Origin: Pyrinomonadaceae bacterium
GTDB lineage: Bacteria > Acidobacteriota > Blastocatellia > Pyrinomonadales > Pyrinomonadaceae
NCBI GenBank assembly: GCA_025923035.1
Contig: JAICGQ010000001.1
Location: forward strand, 1 to 53,764
Length of the DNA: 53,764 bases
Direction: 5' to 3'
Shown here: positions 8,521-32,575 of the stretch, piece after piece
How positions within the stretch are numbered: position 1 is the stretch's first letter
Layout: the number at the start of each line of letters is the position of its first letter
Position numbers and translations under genes: made by a program
The notes under the pieces: generated by a model
Told to the model about the DNA's origin: nothing
Seen by the model: the letters and a program-made list of their open reading frames with translations, nothing else
The model's database searches: none

Positions 8521-8524
8521 CACC

Positions 8525-12219: not shown

Positions 12220-12286
12220 CGTTCCCGACCAGAATGGTCTACCGCCTGCGTTCTCCTCTTCGGGCTCTTCAGTTTTTCGTTGCGTT

Positions 12287-14997: not shown

Positions 14998-15765
14998 GTG
15001 GCGGCCGGTAGTACACTGAAGTCCCTTCGCAACAAGTGCAATATCACTGTGCGACAGGTCGAACAAGCAAGCGTCAGGATCGCCGACGCTAAAGGCGACA
15101 AGCGCTTCCGCATCTCGAATGGCTGGTTGGCCCAACTCGAAAACGGCAAATCCGAACCAAGCATCTGCAAACTTTTCACGCTAAGCGTGATCTATCACGC
15201 AAACTTTCACGACCTCGCGCGGCTTTACAAGGTCGACATCGATGAGATCGAGAGCTACGAGTCGATTGCCAATCCCGACGTCACGCAGTTGCGTCCCGAG
15301 ACGCGCGACGAAAGAGTGTTCAATGTCGCGCGCGGGTCAACGGGTCTCGTGCCGCAGCTCACAACGCCGGAAGTGAAAGAACGGTCTCACATTCGGCATG
15401 CCTACGTAGGCCTGACGGATTACATGATGTACCCATTGATCAGGCCGGGTGCGCTGGTGGAGATCGATACCACTCAGAACAGCATCCGCAACGCCGCTGC
15501 CTGGCATAACGAATTCGACCGCCCGATATTCTTCATTGAATTGCACGAGGGATACGCGTGCGGCTGGTGCGAGCTGCAGGGCAATCAACTGCTGATCCTG
15601 CCACATCACTCGTCGCCATCGAGTGTTCGCCGTTTCATTTATCCGCGAGAAGCGGAGATCTTCGGCCGTGTTGTCGGCTACACCACTCGCTGTGTCGATC
15701 CGGAACCGCACGTGCTGGAACGTGCTTCGGATTCCAAGCAGCGGTTGCGATCGTCAAGCCGGTGA
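14998..15765 (+). CDS. XRE-family HTH regulator with C-terminal degenerate S24-like domain
   Basis: HTH segment (ITVRQVEQASVRIA...ISNGWLAQLENGKSEP). The C-terminal VGLTDYMMYPLIRPGALVEID...IFGRVVGY resembles the LexA GDSM region with Tyr in place of the nucleophilic Ser. GTG start. Confidence 0.65.
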   Translation: MAAGSTLKSLRNKCNITVRQVEQASVRIADAKGDKRFRISNGWLAQLENGKSEPSICKLFTLSVIYHANFHDLARLYKVDIDEIESYESIANPDVTQLRPETRDERVFNVARGSTGLVPQLTTPEVKERSHIRHAYVGLTDYMMYPLIRPGALVEIDTTQNSIRNAAAWHNEFDRPIFFIELHEGYACGWCELQGNQLLILPHHSSPSSVRRFIYPREAEIFGRVVGYTTRCVDPEPHVLERASDSKQRLRSSSR

Positions 15766-15795
15766 CTGAATCAAAAACGATAACGAAACTCGCGT

Positions 15796-15815
15796 CTGCT
15801 TGGAATACCAAGCAG
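15796..15815. promoter_or_regulatory. operator-like palindrome, copy 1 (CTGCTTGGAATACCAAGCAG)
   Basis: Perfect 8-bp inverted repeat with a 4-bp spacer, about 70 nt upstream of the exporter ATG. Near-identical copies lie at 17547 and 17621. Confidence 0.55.
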
Positions 15816-15886
15816 ATTCACGTTTTTGTGTAGCGTGTGCCGAAATCTTCGTAGAGTCGCCGAGGTTCATAACCGGGACGAAACTG

Positions 15887-17542
15887 ATGCGACCGCAGCC
15901 GTATCGCGAACTCTCGTGGCTTGCGTCTGAAGTCAGACCATTTTTGCGTCTTCACGCCGGCAGTTACGTGTGCATTGTTGCCGGCTCGTTTCTCGTTCTT
16001 CTCGATCCACTGATCATCCGCCTCCTGATCGACGACGTAATTCCGCAGCGGCGCTTTAGTTGGCTGCCACTCGTCGCCGTCGCGCTGTTTCTTACCTACA
16101 TGGGCCGTCTTGGACTCGATGCTCTCGCGGGACTGCTGAACGTCTGCGCAGTGCAGAAGATGTCGTTTCACGCGCGCTTGAAACTGCTGCGTCATGTGCA
16201 ACGACTCTCGGCCAATTACCACGACAACACACCGGTGGGCGACACATTGCATCGTTTGCAAATCGACGTCGATCAGGCAGCGACCCTCACGGGAGAGGTG
16301 ATCCCAACGGTGTTACGAATGTTGACAATGTTCGTGGTCGTACTATCGGCAATGCTCGTTCTGAATTATCGTCTCGCGCTTGTCGTGATACCGCTGGTTC
16401 CGGTCTTCATTCTGGTCCGGCGGCGGTTTCACCATCAGCTACGGTCTGCTTCCGATTCCGTGCAGCGGGAATCGAGCAAAGTGATCGGGTTTCTCGACGA
16501 ACATCTGGCCGCGATTCTTCAGATCCAACTGCTTTCGTGCGAACAAAGAGAGGCGCGACGGTTTGCTCGTCTTTCGGCGGCCGCAGTTCGCGCGCAGGTC
16601 AAACGACGCGGCACGGAGATGTTCTTCAGCGTGGTGCTCTACTTGATTATCGTTATGGGCATCGCGAGTGTGCTGTGTTACGGCGGTTACCAGGTGATGG
16701 TGGGGACGTTAACCGCGGGAAGTCTGGTGGCGTTTTATGGCTATACGCTTCAATTGTTCTCGCCCTTGTATGGCGCGATCGAGATCTATTCGAAGTTGCA
16801 GCGCGCGGCAGCGAGTGTGCGGCGTCTTATTGAGATTGCCGATGCTGAAGTCGCCGTGAATGATAAACCGGCAGCCGTCGTTCTGCGACCGGGCACGCCT
16901 GCCGCTGTCGAGTTGAAGAATGTTTGTTTCGGTTACCACAGCGACCGACCCGTGCTGAATGCTTTGAGCATGCAGGTGAATCGCGGGGAACGAGTCGCGG
17001 TCGCCGGCAGCAGTGGCATTGGCAAAAGCACAATCGGACGGTTGGTCGCGCGACTGTACGACGCTCAGGATGGGACTGTTTTCGTCGCCGGCAGTGACAT
17101 TCGCGACATCAAACTCAAGAGCCTGCGATCGTCAGTAATTCTCGTGCCTCAGGATCCCGTTTTGTTCGATTTGACCCTGCGTGAGAATTTGCTCTATGGA
17201 AACGCAACCGCCACGGTCGACGAGCTTGAACGCGTGAGCGAGGTGGCGCAGTTGAGACAGGTGATCGACCGTCTGCCGAAAGGTTGGGACGAACCACTTG
17301 GTCCGCGCGGCAACCGCCTCTCCGGCGGCGAACGTCAACGAGTAGCGCTCGCACGCGCGCTACTGCAACGCCCGAGCGTCTTAATTCTTGACGAGTGTAC
17401 CTCCGCACTCGACGCGCTGACCGAAACACGTTTACTCGCGAGTCTGAACGACTTCCTGCACGACGTCACAACCATCATGATCTCGCATCGGCCGCTGCCG
17501 ACTAGTTGGGCCGACCGCGTCGTAAACATCGAACTCCAATAG
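15887..17542 (+). CDS. ABC transporter, fused permease/ATPase exporter (lasso-peptide D-type candidate)
   Basis: N-terminal 6-TM-type domain. Walker A GSSGIGKST, signature LSGGERQ, Walker B LILDE. ATG 15887 is preferred because the listed TTG at 15800 lies inside the palindrome. Confidence 0.85.
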   Translation: MRPQPYRELSWLASEVRPFLRLHAGSYVCIVAGSFLVLLDPLIIRLLIDDVIPQRRFSWLPLVAVALFLTYMGRLGLDALAGLLNVCAVQKMSFHARLKLLRHVQRLSANYHDNTPVGDTLHRLQIDVDQAATLTGEVIPTVLRMLTMFVVVLSAMLVLNYRLALVVIPLVPVFILVRRRFHHQLRSASDSVQRESSKVIGFLDEHLAAILQIQLLSCEQREARRFARLSAAAVRAQVKRRGTEMFFSVVLYLIIVMGIASVLCYGGYQVMVGTLTAGSLVAFYGYTLQLFSPLYGAIEIYSKLQRAAASVRRLIEIADAEVAVNDKPAAVVLRPGTPAAVELKNVCFGYHSDRPVLNALSMQVNRGERVAVAGSSGIGKSTIGRLVARLYDAQDGTVFVAGSDIRDIKLKSLRSSVILVPQDPVLFDLTLRENLLYGNATATVDELERVSEVAQLRQVIDRLPKGWDEPLGPRGNRLSGGERQRVALARALLQRPSVLILDECTSALDALTETRLLASLNDFLHDVTTIMISHRPLPTSWADRVVNIELQ

Positions 17543-17546
17543 CACC

Positions 17547-17568
17547 TTGCTTGGAATTACAAGCAAGC
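17547..17568. promoter_or_regulatory. operator-like palindrome, copy 2 (CTTGCTTGGAATTACAAGCAAG)
   Basis: 8-bp inverted repeat with a 6-bp spacer. It shares the GCTTGGAAT...AAGCA core with copies 1 and 3 and starts 5 nt after the exporter stop codon. Confidence 0.5.
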
Positions 17569-17620
17569 GCACTCACTTCTCGACGACACGATGGTCCGGA
17601 ATGCCCAGAAAAATCGAAGT

Positions 17621-17640
17621 CGCTTGGAATACTAAGCAGA
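17621..17640. promoter_or_regulatory. operator-like palindrome, copy 3 (TCGCTTGGAATACTAAGCAG)
   Basis: Matches copy 1 at 17 of 18 positions across the core GCTTGGAATAC[C/T]AAGCAG. It lies about 150 nt upstream of the first cyclase ATG. Confidence 0.5.
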
Positions 17641-17786
17641 GCGAAATTTTTTTCACCCGCTTCTTGTAACACGCGTACAGTGTCGCGCGAATCGTCAACC
17701 AATCGGTTGTGCGCGGCGTCAGGCTTTCCCCCAAAGCTCACGAACAAACCTACAGAGTTTCAACTGAACGCTTCGGATTAACGTCG

Positions 17787-19484
17787 ATGAGTGCACTTGC
17801 GGGGATACTCAATTTTGATCGAGCGCCTGGCGAATGTCACGCACTTGTTTGGGACGGGCGGTTGGATAATCGCGCCGAGTTGATTTCGCAACTTGGAAAT
17901 CGCGTCGAGCAGTCGTCAACCGACGTCGACATTGTGATGGCGTCGTACTTGAACTGGGGCATAGATTTTCTCCCTCATTTGATCGGCGACTTCGCCCTTT
18001 CCTTGTGGGACCAAACCACACGGACGTTGATCCTGGCGCGCGACGCATTCGGAACACGACCGATCTACTACCGCGCGAATCCGCACGGCATCACGTGGTC
18101 GTCGGATCTCGCTTCTCTGCTGGACGTTGAGAAACTCGAAATCGATCGTGAATACGTCGCTTCCTATCTGAACGGCGCTCCCGATCTGGAGCGGACGGCT
18201 TACAAGAACATCCACTCTGTGCGACCCGGATCAGCGTTGATCATTCGCGACCATCGAATCGAGAAGCACGAGTTCTGGCGGCCCCATGTCAAACGAGAGG
18301 TTCGTTACCGTTCCGATTCAGAATACGAAGAACACTTTTGCGATCTGTTTCGCGATGCGGTTCGTTGTCGGCTGCGATCGGATGGTCCTGTTTGGGCGGA
18401 GCTGAGTGGCGGTCTCGACTCGTCGGCGATCGTGTGCATAGCCGATCAGATCGCCGGATCGTCGCAGATCGAAACCGTTTCTTACGTCTACGACAATTCT
18501 CGCGCCTCAGACGAGCGGCGTTTCATTGCAGCAGTCGAAGCACAGAGAGGCCGCGCGGGACATCATTTTCACGAGGACGATTCCGTAGGACGGTTTGTGA
18601 ATTTAGACGTCGCCTCGATCGTTAGACCAAACCCCACTTACCGCTTTACCGCACGACACGATTGGGTGCGACGGCAGATGCAGGAAACCGGCAGTAGCGT
18701 GTTGCTCTCCGGAATCGGCGGCGACAACTTACTGTGGAGCGGCGCTGAAACCTCGCCGGAACTCGCGGACCTGCTGGTCCAGCTAAAGCTGCCGTCGCTA
18801 CATCGCGCGGTCAAGCTGTGGAGCCGTGCAACGCGAGATTCGTACGCCGCGACGTTGTGGCGCGGCGCGGTGTTGCCCTGTGTGAAACCCTCACTGCCAG
18901 GCACATCCGCGCTAATCGACCGCGATTTTGCGAAACAGATGCAGCTTCAGGAGCGCAAAACACAGGCGATTGACGCGCAGGGTTTCAAGCTGCCGAGCGC
19001 ACGTGCGCAGGCTTGCTTGTTGGCGTCGGTGGTTCGTGCGGTTGCGAGTTGCTACTACCTGGATCGCGTTGCCACTGAGTATCGCTTCCCGTTCCTGCAC
19101 CGGCCGCTCGTCGAGTTCCTCCTTGCCGTTCCGATCGAACAGAAGCTACGGCCCGGCGAAAACCGATCGCTGCAGCGACGTGCGTTGAGGCATGTGTTGC
19201 CGGCGGCGATCCTGAGGCGGCAAAGCAAGCGGTGTTCGACCGAAGCGCTGTGTCGCACGCTTGCGGCCAACTGGCGCGAAGTCGAGCCGTTGTTCAAAGC
19301 GCCGCTGGTGTGCGAGTACGGCTTCGTCGATCCAAAAGCGTTTGCCGACGCCGCGAGGTTGATCCGGCACGGCTTGCAGAATCCCGGCGGAGAACTGGTG
19401 GGCGTACTTTCGGTCGAGCTTTGGTTACGAGGGCTCGAGTCGAACAGAGCATCGTCGTTGCGAGAGGTGAAATTGGCAAGCTGA
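17787..19484 (+). CDS. lasso peptide cyclase candidate 1 (asparagine synthetase B-like, C-type)
   Basis: AsnB-like fold lacking the N-terminal catalytic Cys (starts MSALAGIL). PP-loop SGGLDSS present. Located directly upstream of the B protein. ATG 17787 preferred over the listed 17709. Confidence 0.85.
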   Translation: MSALAGILNFDRAPGECHALVWDGRLDNRAELISQLGNRVEQSSTDVDIVMASYLNWGIDFLPHLIGDFALSLWDQTTRTLILARDAFGTRPIYYRANPHGITWSSDLASLLDVEKLEIDREYVASYLNGAPDLERTAYKNIHSVRPGSALIIRDHRIEKHEFWRPHVKREVRYRSDSEYEEHFCDLFRDAVRCRLRSDGPVWAELSGGLDSSAIVCIADQIAGSSQIETVSYVYDNSRASDERRFIAAVEAQRGRAGHHFHEDDSVGRFVNLDVASIVRPNPTYRFTARHDWVRRQMQETGSSVLLSGIGGDNLLWSGAETSPELADLLVQLKLPSLHRAVKLWSRATRDSYAATLWRGAVLPCVKPSLPGTSALIDRDFAKQMQLQERKTQAIDAQGFKLPSARAQACLLASVVRAVASCYYLDRVATEYRFPFLHRPLVEFLLAVPIEQKLRPGENRSLQRRALRHVLPAAILRRQSKRCSTEALCRTLAANWREVEPLFKAPLVCEYGFVDPKAFADAARLIRHGLQNPGGELVGVLSVELWLRGLESNRASSLREVKLAS

Positions 19485-19500
19485 GAGAAGGAGCACGTCA

Positions 19501-20271
19501 ATGACCAATAGTGATGGACCGTCTTACCGTGTCGCCTCCGATGTTTGTTTCAGCACAGACGCCGAGGGAACGATCATTCTCGACGTCCAGGGCGGGAAGT
19601 TTCACAGCTTGATTCAGGGCGGGAGCAAGGCGTGGTCCATTCTCACTGCACACCGCCAGGGAATCACGCAGAAAGAACTCGTCGATCAGTTGATGGTCCA
19701 TGACGAAGAGTGCGCGCAGGAGCCACGCGACAAAGTCGATTCAGCCATCCAGCGCATCCTGCAACAACTCATGCGCGACGGATTGCTCACGACGGACCAG
19801 TCATACAATCGTTCAACCCTGGAAACTCTCAAGTGTCGCTTGTGTGAAGCCGGCGCGACTGCCGTTCGCCACACGAGCAACACGTTGATCCGTTTTCGGA
19901 GTGTGCCGGCGGCCGCGTTCATTGAATTTGTGTTCTACGAGGTGATCCGCAGATTCGGCGGCTTCTATGCGCGGCACAAGATCATTCGTCAGTGGCCCAT
20001 CGCGAACGCGCGCCGGAACGACGACATTGACCTGCCTGGACTGTGCGAGGCGGTGCACACGGCGGCCGTCTGGTATCCAAAACAAACATTGTGTTTGCAG
20101 AAGGCTTCGGTGACGACGAGCCTGTTGCGCCAGCACGGCTTTCAGGCCGACATGAAGATCGGTGTGCGCAAACAACCGTTTCATGCTCACGCCTGGGTCG
20201 AAGTTGATGGCCAGGTTGTGGGCGACCATCAAAACGTCCGCAAGTATTTCAAAGAAATTGCAAGCTGGTAA
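19501..20271 (+). CDS. fused lasso peptide B1-B2 protein (PqqD-like RRE + transglutaminase-like leader peptidase)
   Basis: The N-terminus resembles PqqD/RRE (GTIILDVQGGKFHSLIQGGSKAWSIL...ITQKELVDQL). The C-terminus has Cys/His/Asp peptidase elements (TLCLQKA...HAHAWVEVDGQVVGD). AAGGAG RBS upstream. Confidence 0.85.
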   Translation: MTNSDGPSYRVASDVCFSTDAEGTIILDVQGGKFHSLIQGGSKAWSILTAHRQGITQKELVDQLMVHDEECAQEPRDKVDSAIQRILQQLMRDGLLTTDQSYNRSTLETLKCRLCEAGATAVRHTSNTLIRFRSVPAAAFIEFVFYEVIRRFGGFYARHKIIRQWPIANARRNDDIDLPGLCEAVHTAAVWYPKQTLCLQKASVTTSLLRQHGFQADMKIGVRKQPFHAHAWVEVDGQVVGDHQNVRKYFKEIASW

Positions 20272-20299
20272 GGCAAAAGCACGAAGCACGAGGATCGCC

Positions 20300-22234: not shown

Positions 22235-22264
22235 GTTGATTCTTGAAGAAAGGAGGAAGCGGCC

Positions 22265-22399
22265 ATGACTCACGAAGCATTTGAAGCGGTCGACCTCGGT
22301 CACGCGGAAGAATTGATCGAAATCGGCATGCATGAAACGGACGAAGAAATGTGGCTGAAGTTTACGCCGGGAGCGACGCCTTACGTCGAGTTTGAGTAG
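22265..22399 (+). CDS. lasso peptide precursor candidate A1 (44 aa): MTHEAFEAVDLGHAEELIEIGMHETDEEMWLKFTPGATPYVEFE
   Basis: Hand-translated. AAAGGAGG RBS 7 nt upstream. Paralogous to the next small ORF. The leader-like V-x-LG-x-A-x6-G pattern resembles proteobacterial lasso leaders. Putative core has Gly1 and Glu7/Glu8. Confidence 0.7.
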   Translation: MTHEAFEAVDLGHAEELIEIGMHETDEEMWLKFTPGATPYVEFE

Positions 22400-22470
22400 A
22401 TACAACGAAACATCAAATTGGCTTCATGAAGCGGATCCGTCAGAACAATCTGAGAAAGGAGACCAGGCAG

Positions 22471-22608
22471 ATGACTTACGAATCTTTCGAAGTGGTGGAG
22501 TTGGGCAAGGCCGAGGTCGAAATCGAAATCGGCAACTTGAACGCGCCCGAGGAAGTCGATCGAAAATTCCTCGATTCCGTCGCGCCATACGTTGAATTCG
22601 ACGAGTAA
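22471..22608 (+). CDS. lasso peptide precursor candidate A2 (45 aa): MTYESFEVVELGKAEVEIEIGNLNAPEEVDRKFLDSVAPYVEFDE
   Basis: An internal ATG of the listed 60-aa ORF is preceded by an AAAGGAG RBS. Aligns with A1 without gaps through the predicted core, conserving G1, E7, E8, K12, F13 and P19-Y-V-E-F23. Confidence 0.7.
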   Translation: MTYESFEVVELGKAEVEIEIGNLNAPEEVDRKFLDSVAPYVEFDE

Positions 22609-22626
22609 CGCGAGAACAAGTGATGA

Positions 22627-22652
22627 GCAGGAGACAGTCATCTGTCTCCTGC
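22627..22652. terminator. perfect 11-bp stem / 4-nt loop hairpin between convergent operons
   Basis: GCAGGAGACAG-TCAT-CTGTCTCCTGC lies between the A2 stop (22608) and the peptidase stop (22679). No clear U-tract follows. Confidence 0.55.
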
Positions 22653-22678
22653 CTGTCACGGGATCAGTTGCGCGGTGG

Positions 22679-25297
22679 TCACTTCGTTTTTGCTGACTGG
22701 TTTGGTTGCCGGTTCAGCAGAAACTCATCAAACCAGTTGAATATGTGTTCGTACATGTCGAGCACATTTCCCGGAGATTCGATGGAGTGGCCTTCGGCGA
22801 GATAACGGACGAGCTTTGCGCGTTTTCCCAGGCGATTCAACGCAACAAAGAACTGTTCGGCCTCGGAAAGCGGATGAGCGTCGAGCTCTCCGTGGATCAT
22901 TAGCAGTGGCGTCGTGACTTTATCGACGTGAACGTATGGACTGTTTCGCAAGTACCGATCGAGGTCTTTCCATGGAGGCACACCCATACGCATTTGGTGC
23001 GCTTCCACAAGAAACGGCGCCCACAGCGGATTGGGTACATCGCTAAAGCGATACCGGATGTCAAGTCGGCCATAAGCACTCAGCAGATCGTTGACGCCGG
23101 CTAATGCTACAGCAGCTTTGAAGCGTCCGGTCTGCGTTACCAGGGCGTAAACGCTATAACCACCGTAGCTAAAGCCCATGAGACCGGTGCGATCGGGATC
23201 GGCAATCCCCATTTCCACAACCTTCTCGACGGCTGGTTTTACACCCTTATCAAGTTCCAGCATGGGATCACTTTGCACTCCCATTGGTGCAAGAGGAACG
23301 CTCGGATAGAGCACGGCGTAACCATGGCCCGCGAGAACCAATGGATCCGGGTAATCGCGCGACCTCCATTTATACGGATTCGCCCAATCGCCCGTCGGCG
23401 GTACACTGCCGCCGTAAACAGAAACTACTAACGGGTATCGATGTCCGGCCGTGTAACCATAGGGCAGGAGTAGAGCTCCGGAAAGCTGTTTACCCTCCGC
23501 TGTTTGATATTGAATGGTGCGATATTGAGGCTTTGCGATGGCGTCGAGTTGCCGGTTCAAAGAAACCAATGTGATCGACTTGGGACCATGTGCGCGCGCG
23601 TCGAGTAAACGAAGCTCTGTGTTCTCGCTTTCGTAAGCGAGCAATCGGCGTTTAGGTGAATAGCCCGCGAAGACGCTTCCGGCCGGCATCGTACCGAGCT
23701 TAACGGGTGCACCGCCGATAAGGTCCAACCGTAGAAGTTCAGAGCCGCCGGCACTTGACTGCGTAATGACGAGATGATCGGTAGGTCGATGGGCATCGGC
23801 AGGACGCGGCGAAACGATCGATGCTGCATCACTCAGGGCTTTTGCTGTTCGCGCTGCCGGATCTATGGCCCACACGCGTCCGGTGCTCGCACCGGCCATC
23901 AGATTTGAGTTTTGAATCTTGAAGAGTGACCGCGGAGACTGGGCCATCTCGCCCGTTAGCTTGTGATAAGAACCGGCGGAAGAGACGATCCACCAGTCGC
24001 GCTTCGCGGTCTCGCGGCTGTTGTCCAGAGCAAAGCCTCGCACGTCCTTAAGAGAGACTTCCGCGTCCAGGCTGGATCTGTCTCCCGCGTAGCCGTAAAC
24101 CAGAAGGTCTCCGCTGGCGGACCATTGGACGTCCTCCGCGGTCAGGAACTGCTTATCGCCTGGGTCGTATTTGACTGCCGCCACTGCTTCCGGTTTTTCC
24201 TGATCTCCGCGCACGTTGAAAACGGCGGGCGCGACGTCGTTGACTGACGTTCCGATGAAAGCGAAGGTAGAACCCGACGGCGCCCATCGCATTGACGTTG
24301 GTATCACTGCCAACGAGAAAGTCGCCGGTCGCACGTTCGGCACCCATGCCGGGACCGTATTTGTTTTAGTCAGATTTGCGACGCCGAGTCTTAACCTCGT
24401 GATGTCTTCGGTGCGTGGCGGTCTGTCCGGATCTACTGTGCTCGGATAATCCGTTGCGAGAATTGCGGCTGATTTATGGTCCGGCGAGATTGAAACGATG
24501 CGTTGCGAGAGACGCGTCTCGATAAGCGGGATACGCGTTACGATCCGCGTCTTGTTCGTGGCCAGGTCAATCAAACTCAGGCTCACATTCTTCTGTTGAG
24601 CTGATGGGTGCTCCACTTGCTCCGTATCGAGAATGCTGGCAGTGACACCGCGGCCGCGCTTCACATCAGCCATCGCTTTAGCGGCGATGCGGAACGTTCG
24701 TTCACTCTCGTCCATGGCGAGAGAGCGTATGCCCGGAGGCAGGACTCCCAGTAGCAGTTGATTCGATCCGAGCCACGCGATCGTCGACGTTTTGTTTTCG
24801 AGCGTCTCGATCGAGAGGCCAAGATCCACGCCATCGGTCGTACAGGCGCGCAGGCGTTGAGTGCTGAGATCGTAAACGTACGCGCGCACGTTATCGCCGC
24901 GCGTGGAGACCATAGCCAGCCGCTTGCCATCAGGTGACCATAGAGGGTTCCAGTAACCCGCGTGAACTGCTTCGCCACGCGTAACATTGATTAGTGTCTT
25001 GCCGTCAGTTGATGCGAGCCAAACATCGCTGCGTTCCAGTCCTCCCAGATATCCGGGTTCATACGACTCCCCCACCTTCTTGGGTCTCTGGATAACGATG
25101 GCCGCCCACATGCCATCGGGCGAGAACGCTGTTGCTTTGATGGCGTGCACCGTGAGCAGATCCTGAGGAACCATTGCGCGGCCGGGCGCGTTGGGTTGTG
25201 ATCTCGCGACATCACCTGGCCTGATGAGAACCAGTGCGACACAAAGAACCGGCAGCAGCAGATGATGGCGCGCGCGCGCGCTTGGTTTGCGGTACAT
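22679..25297 (-). CDS. S9 (prolyl oligopeptidase family) serine peptidase with N-terminal beta-propeller; lasso isopeptidase-like candidate
   Basis: Signal peptide, then a long TolB/WD40-like propeller region. The C-terminal alpha/beta hydrolase domain has GFSYGG (GxSxGG), HGELDAH and EGHSI triad elements. Convergent with the lasso operon. Confidence 0.8.
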   Translation of the reverse strand: MYRKPSARARHHLLLPVLCVALVLIRPGDVARSQPNAPGRAMVPQDLLTVHAIKATAFSPDGMWAAIVIQRPKKVGESYEPGYLGGLERSDVWLASTDGKTLINVTRGEAVHAGYWNPLWSPDGKRLAMVSTRGDNVRAYVYDLSTQRLRACTTDGVDLGLSIETLENKTSTIAWLGSNQLLLGVLPPGIRSLAMDESERTFRIAAKAMADVKRGRGVTASILDTEQVEHPSAQQKNVSLSLIDLATNKTRIVTRIPLIETRLSQRIVSISPDHKSAAILATDYPSTVDPDRPPRTEDITRLRLGVANLTKTNTVPAWVPNVRPATFSLAVIPTSMRWAPSGSTFAFIGTSVNDVAPAVFNVRGDQEKPEAVAAVKYDPGDKQFLTAEDVQWSASGDLLVYGYAGDRSSLDAEVSLKDVRGFALDNSRETAKRDWWIVSSAGSYHKLTGEMAQSPRSLFKIQNSNLMAGASTGRVWAIDPAARTAKALSDAASIVSPRPADAHRPTDHLVITQSSAGGSELLRLDLIGGAPVKLGTMPAGSVFAGYSPKRRLLAYESENTELRLLDARAHGPKSITLVSLNRQLDAIAKPQYRTIQYQTAEGKQLSGALLLPYGYTAGHRYPLVVSVYGGSVPPTGDWANPYKWRSRDYPDPLVLAGHGYAVLYPSVPLAPMGVQSDPMLELDKGVKPAVEKVVEMGIADPDRTGLMGFSYGGYSVYALVTQTGRFKAAVALAGVNDLLSAYGRLDIRYRFSDVPNPLWAPFLVEAHQMRMGVPPWKDLDRYLRNSPYVHVDKVTTPLLMIHGELDAHPLSEAEQFFVALNRLGKRAKLVRYLAEGHSIESPGNVLDMYEHIFNWFDEFLLNRQPNQSAKTK

Positions 25298-25311
25298 GGT
25301 CGTCTTTGTCC

Positions 25312-28300
25312 TCAGAACATGAGCTTCAAAGCGAACTGCATCGAGCGTGGTCCACCAATCTGATACAGCGGATTGAATCCGCCGGTCGCGCCGCCGCTTC
25401 CAAGACTGCGCCCAAACATGGTTTGAGAGAACCCGAATGCCGTGTTCAAACTATTGCCTGAATAAACCGTGCCGACGGGATCCGCGAAGTTTGGGTGATT
25501 AAAAATATTGAATGCTTCGGTACGAAACTGAAGCCGCAGCCGATCTTTCAAACGAAAGTCGCGGCGGAAGGCGAGATCGAGTTGGTAGACCGGGAACCCT
25601 CTCAGGAAATTGCGCGGAAGATTACCTTGTCGATTCTCCACGGGCGCCAGAAACGGACCAACTTGCGGACGTGGGTTGCCGGGGATCGTTACCGTCTGAT
25701 TGTTAAATCGCATTCCACCCGGAGCTTTCGGATCTTCGAGGTAGAGCGGTATTCCTTCGATAAGATCCGGCCGAAAGCTGAAAGTACCAAACCCGATATT
25801 GCGCGAGTAGACAATGTTTACGGGACCAGCAGATCGGCCGGTGAAGATCGTGTCGACCGACCAATCCTTCAACAGTTCACGGCCGACGCCTCCGAAAGCT
25901 GGAGCGGGAATGTTGTACGTAAGGGCGGCGGAAAACTGGTGCCGGATGTCGAAGTCCGATGGTCCTCTATCGATCTGCGGATCGAGCTTGTCACTTGGCG
26001 TCAGGAAGGCTGCATCACTTGATACGTTGTCGAGCGACTCGGAAAACGTGTATGAGACCAGCGCCTGGAAACCTCGAGAAAGTCGACGACGAAACTGAAG
26101 CTGCAGTGAGTTGTAATCCGACGTAGCCGCATTCCTGCTGACGTCCACTATCTGGAACTTCGGGTTCGGATTGAAGTAACGCTCCATCCGCAGTAGCTCC
26201 CGTCCTTTGGCGGCGACGTAAGCCACGCTGGCTACCTGACTGGCCCCGAGAGACTGATCTACCGTGACGTTCCATTGATAAGTGCGTGGCAACTTCAGAT
26301 GCGGATCAGCGACAAAGATAGTGCTGGTAAACGGTTGATCGAGACTGAACGGTGGAGGCGTGGCCGCCGCTGCATTCAGCGGGTATGGCGTTAATGACGA
26401 GCCGCGCGAGCGGGAATAAGGAAAACTGGTGAACGCGTTGCCCAGGAAACCCGAGCCGAGATCGTAGAAGATACCCCAGCCGCCGCGAATGACGGTCGCT
26501 GAGTTTGTGTGCTCTCTCAGGTGATAGGCAATGCCGATGCGTGGTCCAAAGTTTCCATACGTCGTCTCATAGAGCGGCGTGCCGAGAGGTGCGATCGCAA
26601 ACGTCGCCGGATTATCCAAACCCGTACCGCTTATAAGCTCCTTCTCTCCTTTCGGCGCGGGGTTAATTTCCCATCGCACGCCGTACGTCAGCGTTAATTG
26701 TCGCGACAGCTTCCATGTGTCCTGGAAGTAGGTGGAGATGTTGTGAAAGATGGCTGAGTTGGGATCGGCGGCGGTTGCACTTGCAGCCAACGTGATTCCG
26801 GAAGCAGCCGTACCCGGAGTAGCAGCCCCGTTCGCGTCCAGCACTGACAAGAACGTGATGGTTTGACCATAGACTCGACTTCCCCAGTAAGGTGACATCC
26901 TGCGGTAATCGCCGCCGAACTTGAACTGATGATTGCCCTTACTCATCGAAGCGTTACCAACCACGTTATGTTGGCGCTGCAAGTTGTCGTTGAGTCTGCC
27001 GATCGTGAGCACGGGGTTGCGGCCGCCAAGCGCGACAAGAAAGAACAACAAACTATCGTTCGAAGAGAAAGGCGCCGGAAATAAAGCACTCTCGGGCGGC
27101 GGCGTTGCTCCGCCCAGACCGTCAATCAGAAACGCGCTGGTGCCACGGTTTCTGCTGTAGTTGTATCGAAAGTCCGCGGTCACCGCCGGTGAAGCAATGA
27201 ATGTCACGCCTGACGTCAGCGTAAGCGTCTTGCTGCCGACGACGTTGACGTTATTCAACGGTGAGAGATTCGCGCCGCGTTGCTCCAATTCAGAAGGTGC
27301 ATAGTTGAACCTGCCGAAGGCAGTCACTTTGCTGCTCAACACGTGGTCCATTCGCAGGCTGGTTGCGTCGAGCCGCGATGGATCGGAATAGCTTGCAACA
27401 AAGTCCGCCAGACCATTCACGCGGTCAGGCCCGGTCGGAAGCGGGTAGCCGTTCAGGATCGGTTTGACTCCGGCTGAAGCTACTTGCCGCGCCGCTCGCG
27501 ACGGCACATCCGTCGCCGCGAAAAACGGTTGGCGGAGACGCAATGCTTCATACGAGAAAAAGAAGAAGGTGCGGTCGTGCCCGTCGTACCAAACCGGTCG
27601 GGTGCCTTCGCCCAAGCCCGGCAGTAGCAATGGACCACCAAACACACCGCCATAATTGTTCTGCCGCAACGCCGCCTTTCTGAGGCCGGGATTCGCATTT
27701 ACAAACCAGTCAGTGGCATCGAGCACGTCATTGCGCAGGTACTCGAACAGCGTTCCGTTGTAAGAGTTGGTACCGGACCGGCTCGCAATCGTGACTTGCG
27801 CCCCCGGAGTTCGGCCAAACTCAGGCGCAAAGGTAGAAGTCAGAATCTTGAACTCCTGCACTGCATCAACGGACACCAGGTTGCTCGTGCCGCCCGAGAC
27901 GCTGAAACCCGGTAACGAACCCGTACTGCTTTGACCGATGTTGCCGGCGGGAATGATGCCGATGTTTGCGCTTACGCCATCGACCGTAAAGTAGTTTGCG
28001 TTGGCACGTTGACCGTTGACGCTGAACTGCCCCTGGTCAGTCACGGACGTCTTCGTCAACACAACTCCCGGCGAGAGCGTGATCAGCGACTGAAAACTCC
28101 GGCCATTCAGCGGCAGGTTTCCGACAAACTGCTGGTCCACTATCGTGCCGACCGCGGGCGATTGATCGAGTAGCGGCGGCGTGGACAGTACGTCCACTGA
28201 TGAGCTGCTCAACGAACCGACTTTAAGAGCAATGTTGATCTTCACCTGGTCGTTGACGTTTAGAACGACGTCCGGAACTTCCGCAGTCGTGAATCCCTCG

Positions 28301-28653
28301 CGCTCGGCCTTGACGGTGTAAATGCCCGGCGGCAGTAACGGCACGACAAACTCGCCTTCTCGATTTGTGATCGCGGATCGTTGGAAGCCCTGCGCGATGC
28401 TGATCACGGCGACGTTGGCGCCCGGCACGACCGCGTCGTTTTGATCCGTAACCGTACCGCTAAGCGTAGCGGTCGCGCCTTGTCCATAAACAGTGATCGA
28501 TACCGATTGAAATGCGACGAAGAGGAGGAGAACTAAAACGCCGGTGAGCAGACGCAGAGCGGAGCATGGCGAGGTAAGTACCGGCGTTTCGTCATTTGTT
28601 TCGTGATAACGAGGACAGAAGGCAGACGAGCAGACTTCTGGGGTTCTGGGCAT
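25312..28653 (-). CDS. TonB-dependent receptor with carboxypeptidase-regulatory-like N-terminal domain
   Basis: LSGTVTDQNDAVVPGANVAV...YTVKAEREGF N-domain and a 1113-aa barrel. The C-terminus is ...MQFALKLMF. The gene lies 14 nt upstream of the S9 peptidase start. Confidence 0.9.
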   Translation of the reverse strand: MPRTPEVCSSAFCPRYHETNDETPVLTSPCSALRLLTGVLVLLLFVAFQSVSITVYGQGATATLSGTVTDQNDAVVPGANVAVISIAQGFQRSAITNREGEFVVPLLPPGIYTVKAEREGFTTAEVPDVVLNVNDQVKINIALKVGSLSSSSVDVLSTPPLLDQSPAVGTIVDQQFVGNLPLNGRSFQSLITLSPGVVLTKTSVTDQGQFSVNGQRANANYFTVDGVSANIGIIPAGNIGQSSTGSLPGFSVSGGTSNLVSVDAVQEFKILTSTFAPEFGRTPGAQVTIASRSGTNSYNGTLFEYLRNDVLDATDWFVNANPGLRKAALRQNNYGGVFGGPLLLPGLGEGTRPVWYDGHDRTFFFFSYEALRLRQPFFAATDVPSRAARQVASAGVKPILNGYPLPTGPDRVNGLADFVASYSDPSRLDATSLRMDHVLSSKVTAFGRFNYAPSELEQRGANLSPLNNVNVVGSKTLTLTSGVTFIASPAVTADFRYNYSRNRGTSAFLIDGLGGATPPPESALFPAPFSSNDSLLFFLVALGGRNPVLTIGRLNDNLQRQHNVVGNASMSKGNHQFKFGGDYRRMSPYWGSRVYGQTITFLSVLDANGAATPGTAASGITLAASATAADPNSAIFHNISTYFQDTWKLSRQLTLTYGVRWEINPAPKGEKELISGTGLDNPATFAIAPLGTPLYETTYGNFGPRIGIAYHLREHTNSATVIRGGWGIFYDLGSGFLGNAFTSFPYSRSRGSSLTPYPLNAAAATPPPFSLDQPFTSTIFVADPHLKLPRTYQWNVTVDQSLGASQVASVAYVAAKGRELLRMERYFNPNPKFQIVDVSRNAATSDYNSLQLQFRRRLSRGFQALVSYTFSESLDNVSSDAAFLTPSDKLDPQIDRGPSDFDIRHQFSAALTYNIPAPAFGGVGRELLKDWSVDTIFTGRSAGPVNIVYSRNIGFGTFSFRPDLIEGIPLYLEDPKAPGGMRFNNQTVTIPGNPRPQVGPFLAPVENRQGNLPRNFLRGFPVYQLDLAFRRDFRLKDRLRLQFRTEAFNIFNHPNFADPVGTVYSGNSLNTAFGFSQTMFGRSLGSGGATGGFNPLYQIGGPRSMQFALKLMF

Positions 28654-28822
28654 CGCGAGTTTCTCCTGTGGTCAAGACGCTTCCGGGCAGAGCGTGTTTG
28701 AGATTCGCTTTCGTCTGTCCCGGAATCCGCACTGACGAAAACGCTACTGGGCTCTCCGCAAAACCAATCCTCACTCAACCGGGAGCTTCACAGGGCCAGA
28801 TGCGAACCAAGACTCGCGGCAT

Positions 28823-31800
28823 TCACTTGCCGTAAGTCTCGATTCGCTGGGCCAACCCTGTTGCACTTGCCGACGATCGCCAGAACGACGATTTCAGCTC
28901 CGTGGCAGAACTTCTCGACGAGATCGTGAAAGCGCTTCGCACCGCGTCGTTGTTCGCGAGTGCCAGCTTGTGCAACCTCTCGACCGCCAGCGCCAGATCT
29001 CCGTCGCTTCCGATCACCATACTGTCCATAACTTCCGATTCCGCGCCGGCGAAAAAGATCGGCTGCAGTTCGCGGCGCAACAATGCCGTCTCGCGTTCAA
29101 AGGCTGCCGCCTGCTCGCGCACCATTGCCAGCCACTTTGCGCGTGCATCCGGCGCAACGGTGCGCATGTCGACATTCGCAAACCTGTTGATGAGCTGCTT
29201 TAAAGCGATGGCGTGAAAAAGCGCGTCGTAAGCACGCTTCACTACGCGTGAAGAGAACAACCGCACGGCCTCGTCTACATCACCGCCGGACGTTGAACTG
29301 TTTCTCGATAAGTAGTAGCGCAGCTCGCGGTCTACGGCGACAGTGCTCGCCGTCGCTTCTGATGGATGTATCGAGATCGCACCGGGCTTCGCGGCGCGTT
29401 GTAGCGCCTCGTCCACCGTGCGGACGTCGATCGTCACCGCCGGGTTCTGGCTCACCGGCGCCAGCGCGCGCAGCAGCTCATTCTTTCGTTGCTCGGTCTC
29501 AACAATCCCCTCAACGCGCAACGACCCACCTGCGTTGCGCGTGAGGGCAACTTGCTCATTCCGGTCGGCCTTCGCCTGATTGAGCAAGTAAGCTACGTCG
29601 ACTTCCAGCTCGGCCGAGGCTACGGCTGGGGTCGACGCGCTCGTCAGCGGAAGGACACGGCTAGAGGTGAGGTCCCGGTGCGCCCAGTCGCCGGTCCTGC
29701 TCGTTGGTCTTGCCCCTCCTGTCAGTTCCGGTTCCACCTCAAACACGGCTTTGTTCACAGCCTTGCTGGGCACGAGCTCGAAGCTCGCCTCGGCGAACCG
29801 GTATTCACGCAAGTCTCCGCCGCGCTGGACCAGCAACGTCTGCTCGATCGGACGCAGATCAGACTGGTTCAAGGTGAGCGTGGCTTTCAGCAGACGACTG
29901 GCCCCAATCGCCCGCTCTTTTTCATAAGTCAGAACGTAACTCGTCGACCGGCGCTCGACCATCACCGCCGATGGTTCGGCAATCAGACTGGCGAAAACTC
30001 GCGCAGACGGATCGAGCAGCCACACGTTGTCCAAAGAGACCAACAGATCCGCGGGGTCCGCGGGCGCGACTTGCGGTTGTGGCTTGGCGCCGTGGTGATA
30101 AACGACGCGCGCGCCATCCGCCTTTTGCCATGTGCCGGCGACGAGATGGTTTGTTTCATCGTAGAGTCTCTGCGCGCGATCGCCCGTGGCATGGTTCTGC
30201 CAGATCTCGATCCGTCGTCGCGACACAACTGCTCCTTCCGGCGAACGACGCTCTTCCAGATTGATCAGGCGATGACTGGCGCGATCGCTTGGCTGGGCAA
30301 CTGTCTGCTCGGCCACCGCTGCACGTTCCAACAAAATCCCGGCCGTCATTGCGGGCTCAGACCGGTTGTTCCAAATCAGAAAACCGGCAAGCAACAGCGC
30401 GACAACCATGACGGCCACAAAACCAGGCCGCGTCCATATCCGACGCCGATCGAATGGTCCTGACAACAGCGAGAGACCCGCACCAACCGTCGTGTCGCTT
30501 TCCGCTGTATCAACCGCGCGAGTCCGCTTGAATCCAGGCCAAAGTTTTTTGGTCCATGACCGGAGAAGATCGACCGCACGATGAGTCGTCACCGTTGACT
30601 CAACCGTTTCGTCGACGGTCTGGACCAAAGCAAGGGGTGAGGACAAGCCGCTGGCGTTGATCATTTCTTCGTCAGAAATCTCTACGGGCAAAGGATCCTT
30701 ATAAATAACCCGAAGACTCGATCCGTTCAGTCGCAAAAATGCCGCCAATGTGCGGCCCTCGCTCAATGCGATCCAGGCCCACTGTTCGGATTCAGATCCC
30801 TTGCCACTGCTGAAGAAAAGCAGTTGCACGCCTTGCTCGCTGGTTATCTCGATAAACTCAACCGGCTCGTCCGGGTTCAGGTTGAGATCCACTTCCGTCC
30901 GTTCCGAAGAGACCGGCAACGAACTCAACGGCAAACCGTTTACGGCGATGCGCAACTCCTGCGGTTTGTGTTCGCTGATCGCTCGCAGGTGACGTCCGAG
31001 CTTCTTGCGCACATCCACCGGGCCGCCGCCCGACGCACCGCCGCCGCTGCCGCTGAAAGGTGGTTCATCACTGTCAGAGGAATCAGACGACACTTCCGTC
31101 TGACCACGCTGCGCGAGCAGCGGCAGACCCAACACGCTGTTCACTGCATCCAGACACGATCGACAACTGACGATATGAGCGAGTGTCGGCGTGGTCAGGC
31201 AGTCCGTATTGCCGAACGAGTAAATCCCGTGCAGTTGATGCGGAGTCAGACATGGTCCCTTACAGGAAAGAAAGATCATCTGCCGCAACTCACTCAACGG
31301 TTCGCCGCTCGAACCAAAACTCCTAATCGCGGCGCGTTCAGCAAGGCGTCTCGCATCGACGAAACGCAAACGTCCAGGCTCGTTCATGAACAACTTCACC
31401 TCACGACGCGCCAGTCGTTGCCACTGGTCCACACAGTGACGCGAGCTGCACAACACGCCGGCGATTTCGGTCGGGAAGTAATCATGAAAGAACCGCAGTA
31501 TAAGGACGCTGCCGGCGCGCGAGGATTCCTTGCGCGCGCAGGCGTACGAGCAGATCTGCTGCAACTCTTCGAAGGCCTGCATGCGGCGCGGGGGTTCAAT
31601 TGCCGTCCAACCCAACGTGAGCGAGTCGAAATCGGCAACCGAGAGCGCCGTGTCCTGCAGGCGTTGCGCTTGGCGACTCATTCGCGAGGTATGCATGTAG
31701 CGCAACATTCGTCTCAGGTATCCGTCGATGTTCTCAATCTGTTCCAGACCGGTGCGCCCGAGCATGAATTGGACAAACGCATCCTGCACCAGATCTTCGG

Positions 31801-31921
31801 CGGCCTCGTGATTCTGGTTGGTCAGGCGCAGGGCCCACGCGAGCAAACTTTCGTATCGCTCGGTGAACAACTGCTCTCGTCTATCTTCTGGTCGTATCGC
31901 CGCTCGGCGCTGATCCAGCAT
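28823..31921 (-). CDS. single-polypeptide ECF sigma factor / transmembrane anti-sigma-like protein (1032 aa)
   Basis: Sigma region 2 (EDLVQDAFVQFML) and region 4 HTH (VLILRFFHDYFPTEIAGVLCSSRHCVDQW). These are followed by a Cys/His patch (HIVSCRSCLDAV), a Gly-rich linker, one TM helix (GFVAVMVVALLLAGFLIW) and an extracytoplasmic domain of about 500 aa. Confidence 0.7.
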   Translation of the reverse strand: MLDQRRAAIRPEDRREQLFTERYESLLAWALRLTNQNHEAAEDLVQDAFVQFMLGRTGLEQIENIDGYLRRMLRYMHTSRMSRQAQRLQDTALSVADFDSLTLGWTAIEPPRRMQAFEELQQICSYACARKESSRAGSVLILRFFHDYFPTEIAGVLCSSRHCVDQWQRLARREVKLFMNEPGRLRFVDARRLAERAAIRSFGSSGEPLSELRQMIFLSCKGPCLTPHQLHGIYSFGNTDCLTTPTLAHIVSCRSCLDAVNSVLGLPLLAQRGQTEVSSDSSDSDEPPFSGSGGGASGGGPVDVRKKLGRHLRAISEHKPQELRIAVNGLPLSSLPVSSERTEVDLNLNPDEPVEFIEITSEQGVQLLFFSSGKGSESEQWAWIALSEGRTLAAFLRLNGSSLRVIYKDPLPVEISDEEMINASGLSSPLALVQTVDETVESTVTTHRAVDLLRSWTKKLWPGFKRTRAVDTAESDTTVGAGLSLLSGPFDRRRIWTRPGFVAVMVVALLLAGFLIWNNRSEPAMTAGILLERAAVAEQTVAQPSDRASHRLINLEERRSPEGAVVSRRRIEIWQNHATGDRAQRLYDETNHLVAGTWQKADGARVVYHHGAKPQPQVAPADPADLLVSLDNVWLLDPSARVFASLIAEPSAVMVERRSTSYVLTYEKERAIGASRLLKATLTLNQSDLRPIEQTLLVQRGGDLREYRFAEASFELVPSKAVNKAVFEVEPELTGGARPTSRTGDWAHRDLTSSRVLPLTSASTPAVASAELEVDVAYLLNQAKADRNEQVALTRNAGGSLRVEGIVETEQRKNELLRALAPVSQNPAVTIDVRTVDEALQRAAKPGAISIHPSEATASTVAVDRELRYYLSRNSSTSGGDVDEAVRLFSSRVVKRAYDALFHAIALKQLINRFANVDMRTVAPDARAKWLAMVREQAAAFERETALLRRELQPIFFAGAESEVMDSMVIGSDGDLALAVERLHKLALANNDAVRSAFTISSRSSATELKSSFWRSSASATGLAQRIETYGK

Positions 31922-32575
31922 TCGTGTTCTGGGCTTTCTGGATTAGTCCGTCAGGGCTACTGGACTGGAACCCGTTTTTGTTCTCAACCGTTACGTCGAC
32001 TGTGTAGCTTCCGAAAGAGCGAGTGAAAGTTACATGTCACTTACAATGTGTGGTTTGGGGGGCCGGATCTCAAAAATTATTTTGTGGGTAACATGAACAG
32101 GTGCAAGGATTTACGTGAGATGCGGACACACCAACGCCCTCGGAATCGCTGCCTCAAAAAATCAGTGCGCCCCGACGGATATCACACCAACTTTTAGGTG
32201 AAAAGAACGGCATCAGAAGCCGGGCGAGTGACAACTTCTTTCGGTGGTCTAGGCCACTGGTCTCGTTCTTTTCAGCCGCGATCACCTCACACCGAGACGT
32301 CAAGCATCCCGAGTGATCGCATAGACTACCTAAGCGTTCGCTAATACTTCCGGTGGACCACAATCCACCTTTGCCAGCAATGCTATACCCAACAGAGTAT
32401 AGCGTGCAAGGATAAACTTTTGAGGGCTTTTAAGAATGAACGGCGAGACCCGACAACGACCCCACGTGAATCCGGCCGATTTGGCGGCGCACATTATCGC
32501 AGCCACTTATCCCTGTCAAGGCAGAACTCAGCCAGGCGTGTTAGAATTCACCAGCACCCAACCGGACCTCAAGCC

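Follow-up and report, generated by a model that had tools for sequence, protein, structure and literature searches.

Does one chromosomal island of an acidobacterium encode the making of a lasso peptide together with its export, recapture and processing? [quoted passage not shown] We checked the genes with an open reading frame (ORF) map and Pfam scans, and compared about 60 related loci. All of the genes listed in the earlier note lie where it had placed them, and both the exporter and the peptidase, receptor and sigma set are present in the window. Judged by its sequence, the region is a genuine, uncharacterised lasso-peptide cluster of a family widespread in the Pyrinomonadaceae (Acidobacteriota). 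We read it as a lasso island in which peptide biosynthesis, export, recapture and processing are apparently encoded side by side, and give this reading a probability of about 0.6; the cycle of export, recapture or re-import, and linearisation or processing that we infer from it is plausible. The lasso-type RiPP call itself is supported by the leader peptidase model, the cyclase models, a RiPP recognition element (RRE), a Cys-His-Asp triad, the leader peptide and an invariant Glu8 in the predicted core.

Genes on the + strand are ordered reg1, reg2, D, C1, B, C2, A1 and A2, where D is an ATP-binding cassette (ABC) half-transporter, C1 and C2 are cyclases, B is the leader peptidase and A1 and A2 are precursors. 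A strong hairpin then separates them from a convergent operon on the - strand, which runs from a fused sigma/anti-sigma gene through the receptor gene to a gene for a family S9 peptidase, the last two separated by a gap of only 14 nt. The biosynthetic unit most likely extends upstream to the two conserved regulators, at 13907-15765. The acidobacterial host that had been guessed from the sequence is supported as well, as the nearest loci come from metagenome-assembled genomes of Pyrinomonadaceae and other Acidobacteriota, with Ku protein identities of up to 93-94%. Related loci are referred to below by L or P numbers.

Lasso genes and predicted product

B (19501-20271, + strand), a protein of 256 amino acids (aa), fuses a PqqD-like RRE to a B2 leader peptidase, the two domains that the earlier note had proposed. 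Its peptidase part matches Transglut_core3 (PF13471) at E = 7e-26 and scores 80.3 bits on the lasso B2 model NF033537, for which the cut-off is 33, and the triad of C198, H230 and D242 is invariant in an alignment of 20 homologues with identities down to 24%. The RRE is fainter: PqqD matches the single B sequence at E = 0.0047 (17.7 bits, under the Pfam cut-off of 23.4), and a search of the PDB with that one sequence gave no match. Only the profile of the 20 homologues succeeded there, matching the lasso RRE structures TbiB1 (7e-10) and TfuB1 (6e-5) as well as a lasso PqqD chaperone (4e-7). Thus the B2 domain passes its cut-off in the single sequence, and the RRE is recovered through the family profile.

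C1 (17787-19484) and C2 (20300-22234), both on the + strand, are AsnB-like proteins with Asn_synthase and GATase_7 domains that share 40% identity over 548 residues; C2 is full-length, and C1 is a paralogue with a shortened N-terminal domain. On the lasso cyclase model NF033535 they score 301 and 304 bits, both under its narrow cut-off of 525, against 172 and 180 bits for C1 and C2 on the asparagine synthase (AsnB) model. The PP-loop motif SGGLDS is intact in both, and the proteins begin MSA (C1) and MSG (C2) without Cys2; a Met-Cys start is found in none of the 36 family cyclases. We therefore rejected the alternative that they are genuine asparagine synthetases, as they score about 300 bits on the lasso model and about 175 on AsnB, lack Cys2, and adjoin a B2/RRE gene and precursors. 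The earlier proposal that these ORFs are lasso cyclases agrees with both the scores and the missing N-terminal Cys.

The two cyclases appear to differ in history. A neighbour-joining tree groups C2 with the sole cyclase of the single-cyclase relatives L008 and L027, and places C1 in a separate deep clade; both are kept in every locus of the window's clade that covers their positions. C1 of the window is short of about 50 residues of the N-terminal (glutaminase-like) domain, with a length of 565 aa, compared with 568 in L006, 590 in L054 and 622-626 in L004, L007, L055 and L056. Since the in-frame deletions in the three shortened lineages (the window, where the N-terminus of C1 is encoded at 17787-17900, L006 and L054) differ in size and leave the PP-loop domain intact, they suggest that the N-terminal domain is under relaxed constraint while the synthetase domain is kept. 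Cyclases have also been duplicated independently in other cassettes, as in the pairs of L023 (62% identical) and L009 (46%). From these comparisons C2 is probably the primary cyclase, and C1 may be an old paralogue that is either specialised for one precursor type or decaying. An open-access literature search found no paper describing two-cyclase lasso clusters.

Two precursor genes, each with a Shine-Dalgarno sequence, close the + strand operon. A1 (22265-22399, + strand) encodes 44 aa, with the leader MTHEAFEAVDLGHAEELIE and the predicted core IGMHETDEEMWLKFTPGATPYVEFE, and A2 (22471-22608, + strand) encodes 45 aa, with the leader MTYESFEVVELGKAEVEIE and the predicted core IGNLNAPEEVDRKFLDSVAPYVEFDE; the two are about 52% identical. 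We aligned 22 precursors from ten loci of the window's clade, all of which share a 19-residue leader of the form M-T-x-E-x-F-E-x-V-E-L-G-x-A-E-x-x-I-E. In canonical lasso leaders Tyr(-17), Pro(-14), Leu(-12) and Gly(-8) are followed by five residues and then position -2 (PMC10368454). Set in this register, the clade leaders have Tyr or His at -17, Phe at -14, Val at -12 and Gly at -8, with Ile or Val at -2 in 22 of 22, in place of the usual Thr. Ile(-2) is a rare variant already known from the literature: experiments have validated such leaders, and Acidobacteriaceae are among the groups in which they were noted (PMC10368454). The same register gives Y-x-x-P, Ile(-2), Ala1 and Asp8 in the sister clusters L058 and L059, and Gly1 in L020, L025, L032 and L033; it is supported because these sister clusters yield fully canonical peptides when read in it. 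We had considered GATPYVEFE as the core, with the cut after Thr in FTPG, and dropped it once the precursors had been aligned across the family, which together with the canonical Y(-17)/G(-8) distance put the cut after IE.

Within the cores so defined, Glu8 is the sole acidic ring position kept in all 22 precursors, and thus the candidate ring acceptor. The first core residue would be Ile, Leu, Met or Phe, or in most cases Gly if the cut is made one residue later. The cores have net charges of -4 to -7, all contain an invariant Lys, and 21 of the 22 carry a C-terminal PYVEF(D/E) motif with its Pro. The predicted product would therefore have an 8-residue ring closed from Ile/Leu1 to Glu8 (with cleavage shifted by one residue towards the C-terminus, Gly1 would be joined to Glu7 instead) and a very acidic tail of about 17 residues ending PYVEF(D)E. 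Across cassettes, the conserved Lys showed no correlation with cyclase number or the presence of a peptidase. When A2 was searched against 1.84 billion representative proteins, only ten representatives were found, all of them of this kind. In the relative L008, whose B is 47% identical, a single 79-aa ORF (3513-3752) contains two precursor units in frame, in the order leader-core-leader-core, and a gene for an APH-type kinase (4100-5089) lies between the precursors and the S9 gene.

A2 and the S9 gene converge, and the gap between their stop codons contains a stem-loop (22620-22659). It folds at -39.3 kcal/mol (z = -3.99), a stability reached by none of 200 shuffled sequences, and is likely a bidirectional terminator. 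A scan for sigma-70 promoters and terminators gave no enrichment over shuffled sequence.

The convergent operon and the variable cassette

Is the convergent operon part of the same system? The receptor (25312-28653, - strand) is of the TonB-dependent outer-membrane type, with CarboxypepD_reg and OMP_b-brl_4 matches in Pfam. It is 39-53% identical to receptors beside distant lasso cassettes and 21% identical to the window's other receptor of the same type. In three loci with unrelated flanks (L011, L058 and L059), where B is only 29-33% identical, the B-C-A genes still converge on a receptor gene whose product matches that of the window from end to end at 39-43% identity, and in L011 and L058 genes for a zinc-type anti-sigma factor and an extracytoplasmic function (ECF) sigma factor follow the receptor. 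The association also holds in the reverse direction: two receptor homologues (55-56% identical), chosen by similarity and contig size alone, both proved to lie beside lasso genes, in loci where fused sigma, receptor and S9 genes converge on A-C-B-D-reg. A functional link of the lasso genes to the receptor and sigma genes is thus probable on comparative grounds. In L058 we also observed a second lasso-type set about 1.4 kb past the sigma gene of the first cluster (11993-13060), consisting of a stand-alone PqqD/RRE gene followed by one for an APH-like kinase.

The sigma gene (28823-31921, - strand) encodes a protein of 1032 aa in which profile and motif evidence points to an ECF sigma factor, a zinc-type anti-sigma factor, a transmembrane segment and a periplasmic part in succession. 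Its sigma part (residues 14-176) is borderline, with 42.7 bits on TIGR02937 (cut-off 42.9) and 23.6 on Sigma70_r2 (cut-off 24). The zinc motif HxxxCxxC (HIVSCRSC) stands at residue 249; one transmembrane helix (residues 495-520) and about 500 periplasmic residues come after it. As a correction to the earlier note, the sigma/anti-sigma gene product is one fused protein with an ECF-like N-terminus. In L011 and L058 the same position is taken by two genes, one for sigma and one for anti-sigma, and the sigma factors there have clear r2 and r4 matches. Alignments upstream of the sigma and receptor genes contain conserved blocks, and the spacer between these two genes holds an inverted repeat, TTTCGTC-N18-GACGAAA (28709-28740, - strand; -16.7 kcal/mol), that is found in seven of eight clade loci and may be an attenuator or a binding site.

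The peptidase (22679-25297, - strand; 872 aa) is a beta-propeller serine peptidase with a Peptidase_S9 domain and a GFSYG serine motif, and its signal-like N-terminus suggests secretion. Its full-length relatives are confined to the same clade as those of B, at identities of 61-99%, followed by two at 45-49%; beyond these, matches cover the catalytic domain only. Seven related loci (L019, L020, L023, L025, L027, L044 and L008) also have an S9 gene at this position, and L019 has two (6551-10855). From this distribution a functional link of the lasso cluster to the S9 peptidase seems likely.

Comparison across the family places these genes in a wider frame. Seven genome loci from metagenome-assembled genomes of Pyrinomonadaceae and other Acidobacteriota share the order Ku ... 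reg1-reg2-C1-B-C2-A, with two or three precursors, converging on S9-receptor-sigma; their proteins are 62-93% identical to those of the window, and D is lacking from all of them. Searching with D brought up 42 loci in which a D homologue (65-77% identical) follows a reg2 homologue and precedes lasso genes (one or two cyclases, and B 24-50% identical), and contigs that reach far enough continue beyond the lasso genes into genes for a secreted hydrolase, oppositely oriented, and a receptor. The gene arrangement, which the earlier note had treated as special, is thus the standard layout of a large Pyrinomonadaceae family. A literature search found no paper linking lasso peptides with Pyrinomonadaceae or Blastocatellia.

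The rate of divergence is not uniform along the island. Compared with the window, sister cassettes are 24-36% identical in B, 31-47% in the cyclases, 27-32% in S9 (where it has not been replaced) and 43-53% in the receptor, against 65-73% in D, 65-74% in reg1 and 77-80% in Ku. Sequence comparison thus identifies B, the cyclases, the precursors and the peptidase as a cassette that is hypervariable, whereas its flanks are better conserved. On the left, the conserved flank is marked by two tandem Ku genes, of 251 and 261 aa (11464-13072, - strand). Upstream of these lie genes for a 5'-3' exonuclease and a MatE protein, as in L055 and L056.

Exporter, regulators and paired palindromes

D (15884-17542, + strand; the ORF is open from 15800, and homologues support the start at 15884) has ABC_membrane and ABC_tran domains and no peptidase domain. 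A specific similarity to the microcin J25 exporter McjD was looked for and not found: the best 60 PDB matches, led by ABCB1, TM287/288 and Sav1866, do not include McjD, and we regard D as a generic ABCB-like exporter. Homologues of D adjoin lasso genes in 25 or more loci. The nearest is the D of L054, which is 89% identical; the metagenomic relatives L055 and L056 have none.

The two regulators that precede D are conserved with the cluster. reg1 (13907-14710, + strand), a regulator-like protein of 267 aa without a Pfam match, has counterparts of 65-88% identity upstream of the cluster in related loci. In the sister locus L009 (4981-6941) a histidine kinase is followed by a response regulator with a REC domain, and reg1 aligns to residues 142-401 of this regulator, whereas reg1 of the window has neither a REC domain nor an adjacent kinase. 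reg2 (14998-15765, + strand; 255 aa) is a weak match to XRE-type helix-turn-helix (HTH) regulators (HTH_31 and HTH_19 at E of about 0.005), and a homologue stands directly upstream of D or of the biosynthetic genes in essentially every related locus. Just past the sigma gene, an ORF at 32420-33052 has a C-terminal domain in common with reg2 (31% identity).

The palindrome TGCTTGG-N5-CAAGCA occurs at four sites in the window, all flanking D, which amounts to eight strand-matches where 1.0 is expected. The sites form two pairs with internal spacings of 73-74 nt, one in front of D (15723-15814; sites 15723 and 15797) and the other in front of C1 (17548-17638; sites 17548 and 17621). Family-wide we found 26 such pairs, spaced by 72-76 nt, with core bases 94-100% conserved and always adjoining a reg2 homologue, D or the first biosynthetic gene; examples are the sites at 7059 and 7133 in L001 and at 1361, 1434, 3210 and 3283 in L054, and some 30 loci besides these also have the element. 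From their position and conservation the paired palindromes are probably the operator pair of the adjacent HTH regulators, in which case D would belong to the same regulon as the biosynthetic genes.

The pairs also bear on how D came and went. Relatives without D have exactly one pair, the left flank of which matches the spacer between reg2 and D (that of the first pair) and the right flank the spacer between D and C1 (that of the second). No remnants of D were found in these loci, where the junction is clean. Since the D-less loci keep a single pair with matching flanks, D has been gained or lost by recombination between duplicated pairs; loss is the more parsimonious direction because sister cassettes carry D at the same place.

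How the island may work, and its known counterparts

How would such an island operate? By homology, the RRE domain of B would bind the 19-residue leader and its Cys-His-Asp domain would remove it, and an AsnB-like cyclase without the glutaminase Cys would adenylate the Glu and join it to the new N-terminus. Where present, D would pump the peptide out. The cognate TonB-dependent receptor would rebind it outside the cell, signal through the fused sigma/anti-sigma protein and import the peptide into the periplasm, where the secreted S9 enzyme would cut it, whether by opening the isopeptide, by trimming the C-terminus or by plain degradation.

Several observations weigh against reading the island as one such system. 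D is present in two of the nine clade loci that cover its site and missing from seven. No Pfam match at E <= 0.01 was obtained for a FecR domain in the anti-sigma part or an STN domain on the receptor, and a search for a regulatory motif common to both operons found none, the palindrome being confined to the surroundings of D. Most Pyrinomonadaceae loci lie at the same chromosomal position, so that receptor adjacency there may partly reflect inherited synteny. The place of S9 is taken by an S8 subtilase of 1129 aa in L030 (13314-16703) and L031, and by a BNR/sialidase-like propeller in L032 (7355-9271) and L036 (17355-19295), and it is empty in L011 and L058; the two S9 relatives of 45-49% identity, P0133 and P0134, adjoin receptors with no lasso genes visible. 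On NF033523, the model of the isopeptidase AtxE2, S9 scores 104 bits against a cut-off of 400. Fold comparison was rejected as an isopeptidase test, as the AlphaFold model is poor (mean predicted local distance difference test score of 62, with the catalytic domain below 50) and its Foldseek matches are generic to S9 enzymes and do not discriminate, with TM-scores of 0.25-0.36 (8wt1 and DPP-IV at the top, AtxE2 9th, SpI-IsoP 26th, PCY1 and POPB 43rd-45th). As regards the peptide, its cleavage site is predicted, as are its ring residue and its threading, and Ile, Leu, Met or Phe at residue 1 is unusual for lasso peptides. Leu1 has a precedent in citrulassin. Another non-canonical first residue, Asn1, is known from metanodin (PMC12670498).

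What S9 does to the peptide is the point on which readings diverge most. It had been described in the earlier note as an isopeptidase of the AtxE type, and a functional analogue of AtxE2 and SpI-IsoP, reopening the macrolactam of the re-imported threaded peptide, would suit its fold class (S9 catalytic domain and beta-propeller), its secretion, its convergence on the lasso operon beside TonB receptor and sigma genes, and a gene layout that matches isopeptidase clusters (PMC9266682). AtxE2 and SpI-IsoP are also among the fold matches, and the AtxE2 model is nominally the best NCBIfam match of S9. Its score, however, falls far short of the cut-off and is nearly equalled by the Dpp5 model (98 bits), so membership of the AtxE2 family fails and the word isopeptidase can be used for S9 by analogy only. 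In a PDB sequence search carboxypeptidases and acyl-peptide hydrolases lead (8wt1 at 1e-26), with AtxE2 about 18th (3e-7), and the nearest solved relatives are the S9 carboxypeptidases 8wt1 and 7ep9 together with acyl-peptide hydrolases; no S9 homologue is named an isopeptidase in any source, and sister cassettes hold an S8 or BNR protein, or nothing, in its stead. We thus consider an isopeptidase analogue possible and rather doubtful. Alternatively, S9 could be a maturation enzyme that trims or transpeptidates the C-terminal PYVEF(D)E after export. This is kept open because the C-terminal motif is conserved, and it would be in line with the invariant Lys, the carboxypeptidases among the nearest solved relatives, the appearance of PCY1 and POPB among the fold matches, and the precedent for a secreted peptidase that completes lasso maturation (PMC11451635, PMC13178200). 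But acidic C-termini also occur in L011 and L058, which lack the peptidase, and the conserved Lys follows neither peptidase presence nor cyclase number, which makes such a role decidedly unlikely.

A different view denies the coupling altogether and takes the sigma-receptor-S9 operon for an independent system of nutrient peptide or protein uptake, adjacent to the lasso genes through inherited synteny alone. Receptors of this type are very abundant (three in the window, and 7750 homologues with E values under 1e-50), the receptors beside the more distant S9 relatives P0133 and P0134 have no lasso genes visible near them, most loci have the same flanks (Ku on one side and a pair of XRE and M78 genes on the other), and the two operons share no regulatory motif. 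Against this stand the three loci with different flanks, in which the same receptor subfamily accompanies lasso genes with B at 29-33% identity, and the divergence of S9 and the receptor, which is much faster than that of the flanks and in step with B, the cyclases and the precursors, the distribution of S9 mirroring that of B. We regard independent uptake as unlikely. The second cyclase invites a further proposal, in which both enzymes act on one peptide, C2 closing the lasso ring and C1 forming a second amide (for example, from Lys to a C-terminal acidic residue) to give a bicyclic product. Both PP-loops are intact, the two genes are retained together throughout the clade, the Lys and the acidic C-terminus are invariant, and figure-of-eight lasso peptides exist in class V. 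Yet the deletions of varied size in C1 suggest relaxed constraint, cyclases have been duplicated several times, single-cyclase relatives also have the conserved Lys, and the known class V rings, as in lariocidin B and gelatinamin A, run from Lys to the C-terminus and are made by a clostripain-like secreted transpeptidase, not by a second cyclase (PMC11451635, PMC13178200). A bicyclic product is accordingly very improbable. The sole peptidase of the window is of family S9 and it has no clostripain-like enzyme, so its resemblance to class V systems is functional and speculative.

The reading of the island as a coupled system can be taken further, to a private ligand-receptor system in which the receptor partly co-diverges with a hypervariable cassette at a fixed site, and a strain-specific acidic lasso peptide from this cassette would be secreted, recaptured by the matching TonB receptor only, sensed by the fused sigma/anti-sigma protein, and used as a metallophore or self-signal, with the co-evolving peptidase releasing the cargo or ending the signal and the second cyclase perhaps adding a ring. 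We offer this as a tentative proposal that is more apt to fail than to hold. If true, lasso peptides would have a physiological role in a soil phylum that is dominant, namely in scavenging or in signalling coupled to a receptor. We know of no established native role for lasso peptides encoded beside TonB receptors and peptidases, which to our knowledge have been studied almost only in Proteobacteria.

Among known systems, the astexin and sphingopyxin clusters (with AtxE2 and SpI-IsoP) resemble the window in that a convergent secreted S9 propeller peptidase is followed by a TonB receptor and sigma/anti-sigma genes, and a siderophore-like recapture has been proposed for clusters of this type also. 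In them a GntR gene precedes the precursor, the genes run A-C-B, an ABC exporter is absent and position -2 is Thr, and they come mainly from alpha-proteobacteria, none of which holds in the window, with its XRE-like or unknown-type regulators, the order D-C1-B-C2-A-A and an ABC exporter. Siderophore signalling by FecA/FecR/FecI and FpvA/FpvR/PvdS likewise has the biosynthetic genes of a secreted ligand next to those for its TonB-dependent receptor and for an ECF sigma factor with its anti-sigma partner; in the window neither STN nor FecR was detected, and the ligand would be a ribosomal lasso peptide. Microcin J25 (mcjABCD) shares a fused RRE/B2 peptidase, an AsnB-like cyclase and a cluster-borne ABC half-transporter without a peptidase domain. 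The window differs from it in its generic ABCB-like D, which is dispensable in the clade, in its D-C1-B-C2-A-A order, and in that the producer also encodes the receptor.

We know of no second cyclase in the rubrinodin cluster of Rubrivivax, from which the window further differs in an S9 that fails the AtxE2 model, a fused sigma/anti-sigma protein without FecR, 3' precursors, Ile(-2) and a hydrophobic residue 1. In general, isopeptidase clusters lack an ABC transporter and carry a GntR regulator together with a TonB transporter and paired sigma and anti-sigma genes, rubrinodin being the exception (PMC9266682). According to this review, which cites Xiu et al. 2022, the rubrinodin cluster joins an ABC transporter to a convergent S9-type peptidase, a TonB receptor and sigma/anti-sigma genes and is termed an evolutionary intermediate; it is proteobacterial, with a true isopeptidase and FecI/FecR regulators, and we compared it by this description and not by sequence. 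Going by the same review, the earlier claim that a locus with both gene sets had not been described in this form does not stand (PMC9266682). The Ile(-2) clusters (Bradymonas bsf, and those of Acidobacteriaceae and Sphingomonadales) share Ile or Val at -2 and the Y(-17)/P(-14)/L(-12) register with the window, but all of them encode a kinase and split B1 and B2 (PMC10368454), whereas the window has no kinase and a fused B; an APH-type kinase is present in the relatives L008 and L058.

Set against these systems, what appears new in the window's family is the phylum, an interchangeable peptidase outside the AtxE2 family, the fusion of sigma and anti-sigma in one protein and the probable paired operator with its XRE-type regulators, and also the second cyclase, the 3' precursors, Ile(-2) with a hydrophobic residue 1, the conserved acidic C-terminus and the hypervariability of the cassette at a fixed locus. 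The same lasso-receptor logic would thus be realised in Acidobacteriota with non-orthologous parts (another S9 lineage or S8 and BNR proteins, a fused sigma/anti-sigma protein, and XRE regulators with their paired operator), which suggests that selection has convergently favoured the coupling of lasso peptides with receptors of their own. Natural experiments are available within the family, with and without the exporter, with one cyclase or two and with different peptidases. Its divergent cassettes could be used to study the co-evolution of peptide, receptor and peptidase, and it is an untapped source of very acidic lasso scaffolds with unusual first residues.

Two further observations concern the surroundings of the island. 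Just past the sigma gene, paired genes for an XRE-type HTH protein and an M78 (IrrE-like) peptidase lie at 33057-34057 (- strand), and this pair is syntenic past the sigma gene in L060 and the P0260 locus also. Farther along, at 48564-51455 (+ strand), a protein of 963 aa has an N-terminal Ser/Thr protein kinase domain fused to a full UvrD/REP helicase.

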